DNA from: Escherichia coli
GTDB taxonomy: Bacteria; Pseudomonadota; Gammaproteobacteria; Enterobacterales; Enterobacteriaceae
NCBI RefSeq assembly: GCF_001677475.2
Contig: NZ_CP015229.1
Direction: 5' to 3' (one strand)
DNA length: 64,000 nucleotides
In this document: positions 45,994 to 53,753 of the stretch, piece by piece
Layout: the number at the start of each line of letters is the position of its first letter
How positions within the stretch are numbered: position 1 is the stretch's first letter
Made by a program: the position numbers and the translations under genes
Notes under the pieces: model-generated
Told to the model about the DNA's origin: nothing
What the model saw: the letters and a program-made list of their open reading frames with translations, nothing else
Databases searched by the model: none

Positions 45994-46018
45994 GAAGCCG
46001 GTAAATCCGGCTTTTTTT
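45994..46018 (+). terminator. intrinsic terminator after the early operon
   Basis: GAAGCCGG-TAAA-TCCGGCTT followed by a run of seven T. Confidence 0.75.
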
Positions 46019-46073
46019 ATGCCTCCGGCACCATGAAGCAGACCACGTTTAAATCTGCTTCACAGGTGCTTTT

Positions 46074-46670
46074 ATGGAAAATCAAAAATTCTCCCCGGCC
46101 TTTGAACATGCGCTGAATTTCATTCTGCGTCCCGATATCGAAGGCGTCTATGCCAATGACCCCACTGACCGTGGCGGTGAAACCAAATACGGCATTTCTG
46201 ACCGCCGCGACGGTGTGACTGACGGCAAAACCGATGTCAACGGCGACGGCAAACCGGATACCCGCATCAGGGATTTAACCCGCGAACAGGTTGCTCAGAT
46301 TTACTGGCGCGATTACTGGCTGCCTGCCGGATGTGACCAGTGGCCTGATGGCGTGGCGATGTTTGTGTTCGATGCGGCGGTTCAGCATGGCGTTAAAAAA
46401 GCTATCAGGATTTTGCAGGAAGCCGCGGATGTGGATGCTGACGGCATCATCGGCCCCCGTACCCGTAAGGCCGTGAGCCTGTCCACCCCGGACTGGCTGC
46501 TGGCCCGCTGCATTGTCCGTCGTTCCCGCTTTTATGCCGACATCATCAAGTCCAAACCCGCCCAGGGCAAATACCTGAACGGCTGGTTTAACCGCATGGA
46601 AAAGCTGACCGACGCCTGTCTGGAAATCATCGATACCCCTCCAGGCATCATGTCCGCCACGCGGGGGTGA
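46074..46670 (+). CDS. endolysin, GH108-type muramidase with peptidoglycan-binding C-terminal region
   Basis: N-terminal motif ANDPTDRGGETKYGI typical of glycoside hydrolase family 108. Confidence 0.7.
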   Translation: MENQKFSPAFEHALNFILRPDIEGVYANDPTDRGGETKYGISDRRDGVTDGKTDVNGDGKPDTRIRDLTREQVAQIYWRDYWLPAGCDQWPDGVAMFVFDAAVQHGVKKAIRILQEAADVDADGIIGPRTRKAVSLSTPDWLLARCIVRRSRFYADIIKSKPAQGKYLNGWFNRMEKLTDACLEIIDTPPGIMSATRG

Positions 46671-46897
46671 TATGGGCAAAGGCTGGGATGCCTCTCTGAA
46701 AGCCGGGCGGCGCGACCGCCTGCGTCAGGAGGTTCTGCACCGCATGGCCGGAGGTCCGCCCCCGAAACCGCTGGACTATACCGGCCATGACGGCACACAC
46801 GCCAGCTACTACATGCGTGGCTGGAACTCCGTGGATACACGGGACATTTTCTGGCAGTGCCAGAAGTACAGGGAAAAATTCAATGTGGAAAAAGGTT

Positions 46898-47308
46898 ATG
46901 AACAAAATTTTAAAACTGTGTGACTGGCTGATTTGTTCCCGACTGATGAGAACCCCATGGCCGCTGGCCGGACTGACGCTCTGTATGTTCATCATCAGCA
47001 TGTTATGTGGCTGGCGATCGTTCGTGTTGATGTTGTTGTCCTTTGCCGGGGTGGTGTTGTTTTCATACAGCGCAAGCCTCGGGAATGTGCCATTTCGCCT
47101 GCTGCCTGAGGTCCGTTACCGGGCTTTTGGTCGCCACATCATCGTGTGGTCATGGGTGGTCTGGGCGCTGGGATATTTCTGCTGCGTCTTCAGCACGCTG
47201 ATGATGATGTCACCGGCACACCCGGTGTTCTGGCTGTGTGGTGGCGGTTGCGGCGCTCTGCTCTGTCTTCAGCGTTATCTGTATGGAGGTTTCCCGTGGA
47301 TCCGTTAA
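46898..47308 (+). CDS. putative holin / lysis membrane protein
   Basis: Track ORF trimmed to the ATG behind a GTGGAAAAAGG RBS; multiple transmembrane segments. Confidence 0.4.
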   Translation: MNKILKLCDWLICSRLMRTPWPLAGLTLCMFIISMLCGWRSFVLMLLSFAGVVLFSYSASLGNVPFRLLPEVRYRAFGRHIIVWSWVVWALGYFCCVFSTLMMMSPAHPVFWLCGGGCGALLCLQRYLYGGFPWIR

Positions 47309-51264: not shown

Positions 51265-52832
51265 ACCAGAAACAACAGGCCGGGGCCGCACGCCGTCTGC
51301 TGAACCCGGCAACCGGTGAGGAAGACACGCTGAAAAAAGAGGCGCTCAACGAAGCACAGGCCCGTCCGCGTCAGGCTGGCGTGCGTCCGGCCTCGCCGGG
51401 CATCAGCATCGCCTCCGGGCTGAATCCCGGCAGGCTGGCAGGCATTCTGCGCAATGCCGCCAACGGTATCACGCGTGATTTTTTTATCCTTGCCGAAGAG
51501 ATGGAAGAACGCGATTTGCATTACGCCTCGGTGCTGCGCACCCGCAAGCTGACGGTGGCGGGTATTGAACCGGTGGTGGTGGCTGCCAGTGATGACGATG
51601 CCGACGTACAGCTGGCGGATGCCATACGTGCGCTGATGGAAGCCCCGCAAATCCCCGAGCTGATGTTTGATTTGCTCGACGGGCTGGGAAAAGGCGTGGC
51701 GGTCTGTGAAATTTTGTGGAACACCCGCAACAACCACTGGGTGCCCCGTGATTATGAGTGGGTTGATCCCCGTTTTCTGAAAGCCGAAAAGCCCACTCTG
51801 CGCCGGTTCCGCCTGCTGACTGACGATGAACCGGTGGATGGCGTACCGCTGACACCGGGAAAATTCATTGTTCACCAGCCGCGTCTGAAATCCGGTCTGC
51901 CGCTGCGTAACGGTCTGGCCCGTCTGGTGGCTGTGATGTATATGCTGAAATCCTTTACCGTGCGTGACTGGTGGGCATTTGCGGAAAAATTCGGCATTCC
52001 GGTTACGGTGGGGAAATACGGTCCCAACGCCACGGAGGAGCAAATCCGCGTGCTGATTGATGCGATTGCCTCCATTGCCTCAGATGCCGGGTGTGCCATT
52101 CCGCAGTCCATGCAACTGGAGATGCAGGAAACCGCCAGCCGGAATAACGGCGGCGCGCTGTTCCGTGAAATGGCTGAATGGTGCGATGCGCAAATCAGTA
52201 AAGCCGTACTGGGGCAGACCATGACCACAGATAATGGCAGTTCGCGTTCACAGGCGGACGTGCACAATCAGGTGCGCATGGACATTGTGCGCTGGGACGC
52301 GCGACAGCTGGCTAACACGCTGAATGAATATCTGGTGCGTCCCTACATCGAGGCCAACTACGGGCCACAGGCGCACTATCCCCGTGTTGTTCTGCGTATC
52401 AGTGAAGCCGAAGATCTGAAGGCGCTGACTGATGCTCTGGTGCCACTGATTGACCGGGGGATGCGGGTTCAGGAATCGGAGCTGCGGGATCGGTTCGGCC
52501 TGGCGGAACCGGACGAAGGGGCTGATGTTCTGCATCCGGTGTCTGCCGGAATGTCAGGTGATATGGCGATGAACCACGAGCGCGTCGCCCTGAACCGGGA
52601 ACACCCCGACGAACTGGCACAGATGGTGGATGATGCCCTGCGTGACTGGCAGAAAACCGGCGAGGCGTTCACAAACCCGGTGCTGACACTGGCGCAGGAA
52701 TGCGACAGTTTTGATGACTTTCTGAAACGCCTGCCTGAGCTTCAGGAAACGCTGAACGCGGACGACTTTGCCCTGCAACTGGCGGAGGTGTGCTTTAAGG
52801 CCCGTGCGCTGGGAGACACTGGTCATGCGTGA
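51261..52832 (+). CDS. portal protein (Mu gp29/DUF935-like)
   Basis: 523 aa between terminase and F-like gene. Confidence 0.7.
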   Translation: MNQKQQAGAARRLLNPATGEEDTLKKEALNEAQARPRQAGVRPASPGISIASGLNPGRLAGILRNAANGITRDFFILAEEMEERDLHYASVLRTRKLTVAGIEPVVVAASDDDADVQLADAIRALMEAPQIPELMFDLLDGLGKGVAVCEILWNTRNNHWVPRDYEWVDPRFLKAEKPTLRRFRLLTDDEPVDGVPLTPGKFIVHQPRLKSGLPLRNGLARLVAVMYMLKSFTVRDWWAFAEKFGIPVTVGKYGPNATEEQIRVLIDAIASIASDAGCAIPQSMQLEMQETASRNNGGALFREMAEWCDAQISKAVLGQTMTTDNGSSRSQADVHNQVRMDIVRWDARQLANTLNEYLVRPYIEANYGPQAHYPRVVLRISEAEDLKALTDALVPLIDRGMRVQESELRDRFGLAEPDEGADVLHPVSAGMSGDMAMNHERVALNREHPDELAQMVDDALRDWQKTGEAFTNPVLTLAQECDSFDDFLKRLPELQETLNADDFALQLAEVCFKARALGDTGHA

Positions 52833-53589
52833 AACCCTCATCCCGAAAGAGGCGCTGGCGTGGCTGAAGGCGAAGAAGCTGCGCCCCGGTTTTGATTACC
52901 GGGATGTGTGGCGGGAAGAACACCGGAACAGCTTCACCGTGGCAAAAATGCTGCAACTGGATTTGTTGTCGGATGTGAAATCCCTTGTGGAAGACGCCCT
53001 GCAAAGCGGGCAGACGTTCAGCGAGTTCCGGGAGATGCTGCAACCGCTGCTGATAAAACGCGGATGGTGGGGCGTACAGGAGATGGATGATCCGCTGACG
53101 GGCGAAAGGCGCACCGTGCAACTGGGCAGCGACCGCCGCCTCCGCACGATTTTTGACACCAACATGCGCACCGCCCGCGCGGCGGGCCAGTGGGAACGCA
53201 TTCAGCGGACAAAGCGGGCCATGCCGTATCTGATTTATGAGCTGGGGCCATCCCGCGAGCACCGGGCGGAGCATGTGAAATGGGCGCGTCTGTGTCTGCC
53301 TGTAGACCACCCGTTCTGGCAGACGCATTTCGCCCCTAACGGCTGGGGCTGCAAATGCACCATCCGTCAGGTCAGCCGTGGTGAGTATGCGCAACTGGCG
53401 GCACAGGGCACCATTCACACCGAAGCGCCGGAAATCAGGACTGTCCGCTGGGTGAACAAACGTACGGGCGAAGAGGAAGAGGTGCCGGAAGGGATTGATC
53501 CGGGCTGGAACTACAATCCCGGTATAAACCGTGAGCAGGAGCTGGCGCGCCAGCTGGCGACAAAACAGGCCCGTTTTGACAGTGAGTAA
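52825..53589 (+). CDS. Mu F-like head morphogenesis protein
   Basis: C-terminal GWGCKC motif typical of the phage Mu F-like family. Confidence 0.65.
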   Translation: MRETLIPKEALAWLKAKKLRPGFDYRDVWREEHRNSFTVAKMLQLDLLSDVKSLVEDALQSGQTFSEFREMLQPLLIKRGWWGVQEMDDPLTGERRTVQLGSDRRLRTIFDTNMRTARAAGQWERIQRTKRAMPYLIYELGPSREHRAEHVKWARLCLPVDHPFWQTHFAPNGWGCKCTIRQVSRGEYAQLAAQGTIHTEAPEIRTVRWVNKRTGEEEEVPEGIDPGWNYNPGINREQELARQLATKQARFDSE

Positions 53590-53728
53590 CCCTCCCGCCG
53601 TAAATCCCCCTGAAACGCATCAGAAACGCGTTTTTTATTCTGATGGCGTGAATGTGCATTCTGACGTTTTTGAAGATGCTGTGGCGTTTTTGAAGGGGTT
53701 TTGAAGGGGGTATTTCCCCGTTTTCAGT

Positions 53729-53753
53729 GAAGCCGGTAAATCCGGCTTTTTTT
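53729..53753 (+). terminator. intrinsic terminator, second identical copy of the 45994 hairpin
   Basis: Same hairpin AAGCCGG-TAAA-TCCGGCTT plus T-run. Confidence 0.7.

Follow-up and report, generated by a model that had tools for sequence, protein, structure and literature searches.

Within the 64,000-nucleotide stretch of Escherichia coli contig NZ_CP015229.1 analyzed here (the window), a Mu-like transposable prophage runs from approximately position 37153 onward, and one 26-nt sequence, TGAAGCCGGTAAATCCGGCTTTTTTT, stands at two of its operon boundaries, between mor and the endolysin gene lys and between genes F and I. This repeated element is very probably a composite 'stop and restart' module of the type found at Pm, the Mor-activated middle promoter of phage Mu: a predicted DNA box for the activator Mor overlaps an intrinsic terminator, ahead of the late operons of a Mu-like prophage that has no C gene. 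The evidence comprises sequence identity to Mu Pm, promoter spacing, conservation patterns among related prophages, RNA folding and the presence of a single Mor gene. The type of regulation is already known and is met here at a new location; it is no new kind of mechanism. The result is a candidate scheme of regulation, with Mor as the one activator, three Pm-type late promoters and no C, for Mu-like prophages of a group that is common yet unstudied; in this scheme a single 26-nt sequence would serve as activator DNA site and RNA terminator, two roles that comparative data separate. It also gives exact targets for annotation and for the study of how transposable phages silence their lysis genes until Mor is made.

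The repeated element and its likeness to Mu Pm

An 18-nt core, GAAGCCGGTAAATCCGGC, has two exact matches in the window, both of them + strand: 45994-46011 and 53729-53746. The exact repeat extends to 26 nt (45993-46018 and 53728-53753) and lies within a 49-nt region of 86% identity (45982-46030 versus 53717-53765). A sequence-only reading of this DNA had reported exact reuse of a hairpin and T-run at these two sites, and both the reuse and the positions were borne out. Shuffled sequence held a mean of 0.06 matches with 3 mismatches tolerated, which rules out chance as the source of the repeat. We judged a further match at 61543-61560 (- strand) to be fortuitous, as it carries 3 mismatches, lies inside the tape-measure open reading frame and reaches 9 bits in a position-weight scan.

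In each copy, an 8-bp stem with five G-C pairs closes a 5-nt loop (-12.6 kcal/mol) and seven T follow; a terminator scan marks both. Both also have the full anatomy of an intrinsic terminator, with a G+C-rich stem and a U-run on the transcribed strand after the last gene of an operon. The first hairpin and its T7 tract (GAAGCCGG-TAAAT-CCGGCTTT; 45994..46018, +; z -3.97) lie where the early (mor) operon ends, 5 nt from the mor stop codon (45988) and 80 nt short of the lys ATG (46074), in a gap of 85 nt. The second (53729..53753, +) stands at the end of the lys-to-F operon, 140 nt past the F stop codon (53589), within the 213-bp gap that reaches to the I ATG (53803). A Rfam search of 45400-54300 returned nothing above threshold; its sub-threshold sroD matches (22 bits; gathering score 50) were set aside as terminator look-alikes.

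Each hairpin overlaps a predicted Mor box, in which two 5-bp half-sites flank a G/C-rich hexamer and which takes in the 5′ arm and loop of the hairpin. At the lys promoter the box reads AATGA-AGCCGG-TAAAT (45991..46006, +) and matches the -51 to -36 element of Mu Pm, AGTAAAGCCGGTTAAT, at 13 of 16 positions; at the I promoter it reads AGTGA-AGCCGG-TAAAT (53726..53741, +) and matches at 14 of 16, so that the two differ from Mu's 16-bp box at 2-3 positions. With a weight matrix built solely from relatives' sites, Mu Pm not being in the training set, the lys box scored 31.8 bits, the I box 31.3 and Mu Pm itself 30.0, against 11.3 for the next-best site in the window.

The comparison with Mu was anchored on published coordinates. 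Mu Pm lies directly 3′ of mor (cagTAAAGCCGGTTAATCCGGCTTTTTTT; GenBank Mu record ctgtaaacagTAAAGCCGGTTAATCCGGCTTTTTTTacgtcctcaaTATCCTgtgatga, also given as cagTAAAGCCGGTTAATCCGGCTTTTTTTacgtcctcaaTATCCT), and its Mor element has been described as 16 bp from -51 to -36, with two 5-bp inverted repeats around a G/C-rich hexamer. We set the Pm start site at L073 725 from the permanganate-reactive positions -12, -4, -1, +1, +3 and +4 (PMC4287176). This start puts the published -57G and -54A (PMC4390567) on a G and an A, and the element at -51 to -36 then reads AGTAA-AGCCGG-TTAAT. The hairpin dyad itself, centered at about -38, was considered as the Mor site and dropped, the published coordinates setting the Mor element 5.5 bp further upstream. 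The GenBank record places the Mor-activated middle promoter at 9163-9233 and a TransTermHP terminator inside it, at 9179-9200; this annotated Mu hairpin is the homologue of the window's mor-lys hairpin.

Downstream of the box, spacing is equally Mu-like. A -10-like hexamer stands 22 nt past each box, the distance that separates the Mu Pm box from TATCCT: CACCAT for lys (46029..46034, +; predicted transcription start near 46042) and CATACT for I (53764..53769, +; predicted start near 53777), the latter homologous to CAAACT of Mu PI. Measured from these predicted starts, the boxes would be centered near -43.5 and the sequence at -35 is TCCGGC, with no -35 hexamer apparent. A late promoter had been expected in the F-I gap from the sequence alone, and the Mor-type box with its hexamer ahead of I supplies a candidate. 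Neither site has the features of a C-type late promoter (a TTAT-N5-6-ATAA box together with an encoded C): both boxes are Mor-type, and the window holds no second C-like homologue.

These features suggest the following mechanism. The sequence A(G/A)TGA-AGCCGG-TAAAT would be the 16-bp site bound by the one Mor activator that the prophage encodes; located at about -51 to -36, it would replace the -35 hexamer and recruit sigma-70 RNA polymerase to the weak -10 hexamer 22 nt further on (CACCAT at lys, CATACT at I). Read from upstream, the G/C-rich spacer of the same box would pair with the following CCGGCTT and, with the seven U that come next, act as an intrinsic terminator for incoming transcripts, namely those of the early operon past mor and those of the lys-to-F operon ahead of I. 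The Mor-dependent transcript would begin about 24 nt beyond the U-run and would therefore not contain the terminator. On this reading the mor-lys junction would be the direct counterpart of the mor-Pm junction in Mu.

Conservation, a third box and the single activator gene

We located both sites in each of 69 related loci from IMG/VR, collected by their portal protein; these relatives (about 70 prophages) span roughly 70-98% portal identity. No close relatives were found in the phage collection by megablast, and a protein search turned up Klebsiella phage Kp4866-3. Counted as GAAGCCGGT(A/T)AATCC with at most 4 mismatches in 15 nt, the motif and the 3-4 bases upstream of it occur at both sites in every locus with a gene match (62/62 for lys, 69/69 for I). 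The hairpin follows a different pattern at the two sites. Ahead of lys, 61 of 62 loci preserve the 3′ arm and T-run, and the other one has T5CT3; ahead of I, both are preserved in 26 of 69 loci, another 26 form a hairpin that no T-run follows, and 17 retain the motif with no hairpin at all. The divergent E. coli prophage L003 (~72% identity) carries the full hairpin and T-run before lys, and at its I site has GTGAAGCCGGTTAATCC only, then unrelated sequence with neither stem nor T-run. I sites can keep the box without the 3′ arm because the Mor element lies 5.5 bp upstream of the hairpin dyad. That the terminator is universal before lys and optional before I would fit a stronger need to insulate the lysis operon from early transcription.

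The promoter parts are conserved along with the box. Every unique site has a -10-like hexamer with A2 and T6, 20-21 nt past ...AATCC; at this fixed offset the lys sites read CAAAAT, CATGAT, CACCAT, TAAATT and others, and all 29 unique I sites read CATACT, GACACT, CACACT, CATGCT or CATCCT. Conservation extends from the element into its flanks, taking in the UP-like region, the -10 hexamer and the leader.

In loci whose I site retains the hairpin, the stem covaries: at one pair, 12 sequences have G-C, 10 have A-U and 2 have G-U; at another, 12 have C-G and 8 have G-C. In 500 shuffles the observed covariation score was never reached, and slid controls scored lower. Such compensatory changes, G-U pairs included, point to selection on RNA pairing in these loci. 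Conservation of the 5′ part and covariation of the stem together imply two overlapping constraints, one sequence-specific and one on pairing. The earlier description of the element as a terminator at operon boundaries holds, in that both copies look like intrinsic terminators. At the I site the 3′ arm and T-run are dispensable, and the box is the part conserved at both sites.

In some relatives, a further gene of 500-600 bp separates mor from the Mor box/terminator (L003 11321-11830; L004 ~4204-4813). In these prophages the composite element is always directly upstream of lys and not directly past mor.

The search for further copies in the prophage, proposed by the sequence-only reading, yielded a third Mor-type box beyond the window end. 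In L002, a complete relative, it lies at 39195-39214 (TCAGGGAAAACGGTAAATCT, 23.6 bits; a coordinate is also given at L119 27151), inside the baseplate-V gene upstream of gp46, and its equivalent in the present prophage would fall near 64,690, just past the end of the window. A TATTAT hexamer stands 22 nt past it. This box lies in coding DNA and has no hairpin. A box of at least 9.8 bits is present at this position in 42/44 relatives, and the core GGGAAAnCGGTWAAT is near-invariant where the flanks have diverged. Both L002 and the isolated phage Kp4866-3 have three high-scoring + strand boxes each, one ahead of lys, one ahead of I and one in baseplate-V ahead of gp46. These positions resemble those of Mu Plys, PI and PP, and by analogy the third box is likely an internal late promoter comparable to Mu PP.

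The gene for the presumed activator is mor, the last gene of the early operon (45539..45988, +; Pfam PF08765 Mor, E 3.6e-30). Its product shares 63% identity with Mu Mor over 127 amino acids (E 9e-63) and 32% with Mu C, and its helix-turn-helix region is near-identical to that of Mu Mor. Searches of the window, L002 and L003 by tblastn with Mu Mor and Mu C found no second Mor/C homologue, leaving mor as the sole gene of this family in all three. With no C gene, Mor probably activates the late operons directly. The prophage would then have three Mor-driven Pm-type promoters (lys, I and the one inside the baseplate-V gene), two of them overlapping intrinsic terminators, and would run a two-step cascade as compared with Mu's three.

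Competing explanations

The element might instead be a plain intrinsic terminator, duplicated or convergent, with no sequence-specific role, and with the late promoters elsewhere in the gaps. Its canonical anatomy, its positions at operon ends and the covariation of the I-site stem all agree with this. A terminator, however, requires only a stem and a U-run, whereas the conserved part here is the 5′ arm, the loop and the 3-4 bases upstream, and it is kept in 17/69 I sites that have no 3′ arm. The 85-nt mor-lys gap is too small for an activator-dependent promoter clear of the hairpin, and the sequence matches the mapped Mor site of Mu Pm. Simple termination also leaves unexplained the fixed spacing to the -10 hexamer, and a third copy of the box occurs in coding DNA without a hairpin. 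We therefore consider this explanation unlikely.

Still less probable is that the hairpin acts as an RNA signal for a phage factor, like lambda nut/boxB or HK022 put, that lets polymerase pass terminators. A 15-nt stem-loop with a 5-nt loop, present with the same sequence at two sites and with a covarying stem, is superficially boxB-like, but the U-run directly after the hairpin would terminate transcription rather than load a factor. Many I sites, moreover, retain the DNA box and lack the hairpin, the Mu equivalent is a Mor-bound DNA site, and the annotation of relatives lists no N- or Q-like gene (no dedicated search was made).

Hardly credible, finally, is a small mobile or repeat cassette (like a miniature inverted-repeat transposable element or a repetitive extragenic palindromic sequence) inserted at two intergenic sites: two identical 26-nt copies 7.7 kb apart could suggest one, but across about 70 prophages the copies occur, on the same strand, only at two syntenic places plus one degenerate third, with none elsewhere in the window or on the opposite strand, no flanking duplications apparent in the flanks read, and flanks (UP-like region, -10, leader) that are conserved with the element. 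The mobile or duplicated regulatory cassette proposed from the sequence alone was accordingly abandoned, the copies being confined to syntenic promoter positions and the 5′ arm and loop corresponding to the predicted Mor-binding element.

Several observations nonetheless weigh against the composite Mor-terminator module. The half-site symmetry is weaker than in Mu (AGTGA versus TAAAT), and the lys -10 hexamer CACCAT agrees with the consensus at 3/6 positions. Recent recombination between the two window copies may contribute to their 26-nt identity. Conservation of the third box, which is coding, is possibly attributable in part to the protein (G-K-T/S-V-N). The com/mom upstream region of L002 has no Mor box of at least 8 bits, only a TAAAT-like stretch, so that at least one late unit would be controlled otherwise. 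Finally, Mor binding, start sites and termination are all inferred from homology with Mu and from conservation.

Neighboring features and comparison with Mu-like phages

An inverted repeat follows each of the two window promoters. In the lys leader, GAAGCAGA...TCTGCTTC (46035..46061, +; -10.6 kcal/mol) runs from the first base past the -10 hexamer to 2 nt ahead of the Shine-Dalgarno sequence AGGTG; in the I leader, CCGTCG...CGACGG (53772..53794, +) spans the predicted start, and its 3′ arm overlaps the Shine-Dalgarno sequence GGAG. Relatives have stems of other sequence at the same position in both leaders (for I, e.g. GTCCGTC/GACGGAC and GTCCGG/CCGGAC), and these differences between clades indicate covariation. 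Mu Pm (L073 718-750) shows the same arrangement: its 5′ arm occupies -7 to -1 and is not part of the Mor-initiated RNA; the 5′ arm of the lys leader likewise lies upstream of the predicted start. A role for the leader stems as 5′-terminal stabilizers was dropped for this reason: by Mu's mapped start, the 5′ arm is untranscribed from the Mor promoter. With the 5′ arm between the -10 and the start, the leader stem would form only in read-through RNA, whose translation it may block, a situation known for T4 lysozyme. We tentatively raise the possibility, which we regard as doubtful, that the module is a three-layer insulator (terminator, activator box and leader repeat) that leaves only Mor-initiated lysis and head transcripts translatable. 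If so, a whole branch of Mu-like phages would run its late program on Mor alone, without C, and lysis would be guarded against leaky early transcription at two levels.

The F-I gap holds additional elements upstream of the box. The TTTTGAAG repeats noted there from the sequence alone, in the same 213-bp gap as the second copy, were confirmed as TTTTGAAG(GGG) at 53667-53709. More broadly, phased T-tract repeats (TTTTTGAAG, three copies) followed by a hairpin, GGGG-GTATTT-CCCC, and GTTTTC occupy 53640..53725 (+) and align with the Mu G-I gap. The TTTTGAAGGGG repeat block aligns with the part of the Mu G-I intergenic region that holds an annotated gyrase cut site (L073 9375-9440), and E. coli SE11 carries the same block in a Mu-type prophage, again in the G-I gap (L118 4001-4046; 95.7% identity over 46 nt); the I promoter of the SE11 prophage has no Mor box. 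To judge from these alignments, the T-tract block is probably the counterpart of Mu's central strong gyrase site, separate from the repeated hairpin. In L002, the equivalent gap lies near the middle of the prophage.

The small hairpin, GGGG-GTATTT-CCCC followed by GTTTT (53706-53724), stands directly upstream of the I-site Mor box, and the terminator scan marks 53706-53719 as terminator-like. It covaries in relatives (e.g. CGCGG/CCGCG in L003) and aligns with the part of the Mu G-I gap where the Mu record predicts a terminator (17908-17953). In clades that lost the box hairpin, it may be the main terminator of the lys operon.

The prophage gene order is repressor, ner-like, transposase A, B, gam, gemA, mor, lys, terminase, portal, F, I, T and tail genes, consistent with the annotation of close E. 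coli relatives; related prophages occur in 53/5426 complete E. coli genomes. The first late operon begins with lys (46074..46670, +), a GH108 endolysin gene by Pfam PF05838 and PF09374 and by the RefSeq annotation of its homologues, and the second begins with I (53803..54758, +), a Mu-type protease/scaffold gene (Pfam PF10123) that is frameshifted. Compared with L001 and L002, one nucleotide is missing from a G run near 53913 (CACCGGGCG to CACCGGCG), which splits the I open reading frame; the cause may be a sequencing error, or this copy of the prophage may be defective.

The remainder of the window, 1-37152, is a P1/P7-like phage-plasmid with sit at 31838-35266 (-); compared with phage records over 14000-37152, it shows ~96.5% identity to RCS47, P7 and P1. 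This homology ends at the junction 37152/37153, where the Mu-like prophage starts (TGACCAAGTAAATT...), with three ATTCAAGATAA repeats near that start at ~37170-37300. The transposable phage is thus inserted into a P1/P7-like phage-plasmid.

Set beside Mu Pm, the window element has a near-identical sequence (TAAAGCCGGTTAATCCGGCTTTTTTT in Mu, TGAAGCCGGTAAATCCGGCTTTTTTT here), begins 2-3 nt past the mor stop codon, keeps the same distance to a weak -10 hexamer with no apparent -35 hexamer, embeds a terminator hairpin in the promoter and is followed by an inverted repeat that begins right past the -10. The difference lies in deployment: Mu has one copy, driving a middle operon that ends in C, whereas in the window the element stands directly ahead of the endolysin gene, with a second full copy ahead of I, and there is neither a middle operon nor a C gene.

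The resemblance to the Mu late promoters Plys, PI and PP is one of position and layout, since the predicted promoters occupy the same genomic places (ahead of lys, ahead of I and in the baseplate region) and carry an activator box in place of a -35 hexamer. At PI, the core and leader are recognizably homologous (CAAACTgaCTGCTCA...TGAGCAG in Mu, CATACTgaCCGTCG...CGACGG in the window). Unlike in Mu, the upstream box is Mor-type rather than C-type, and the activator is Mor-like (63% versus 32% identity).

In the Mu G-I gap, as in the window, a short mid-genome interval takes in both the end of one late operon and the restart at the next, the record giving a predicted terminator at 17908-17953 and PI at 17977-18043. 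Terminator and promoter are separate in Mu, whereas the second terminator hairpin of the window is fused with the activator box. We take the Mu early transcript to end at the 9.2-kb hairpin and the lys transcript to end between G and I, both represented here by the predicted terminators of the record. Experimental mapping of the lys-transcript terminator was reportedly carried out in 1994 by Zha, Zhao and Howe.

The closest parallels in gene layout are SuMu, Mannheimia 3927AP2 and phiMhaMu2, which share the order gemA, mor and GH108 endolysin and have no C. That such Mu-like phages carry lys directly 3′ of mor and lack C has already been noted in PMC4553209, which remarks on the missing C, asks for experiments and describes no promoter elements.

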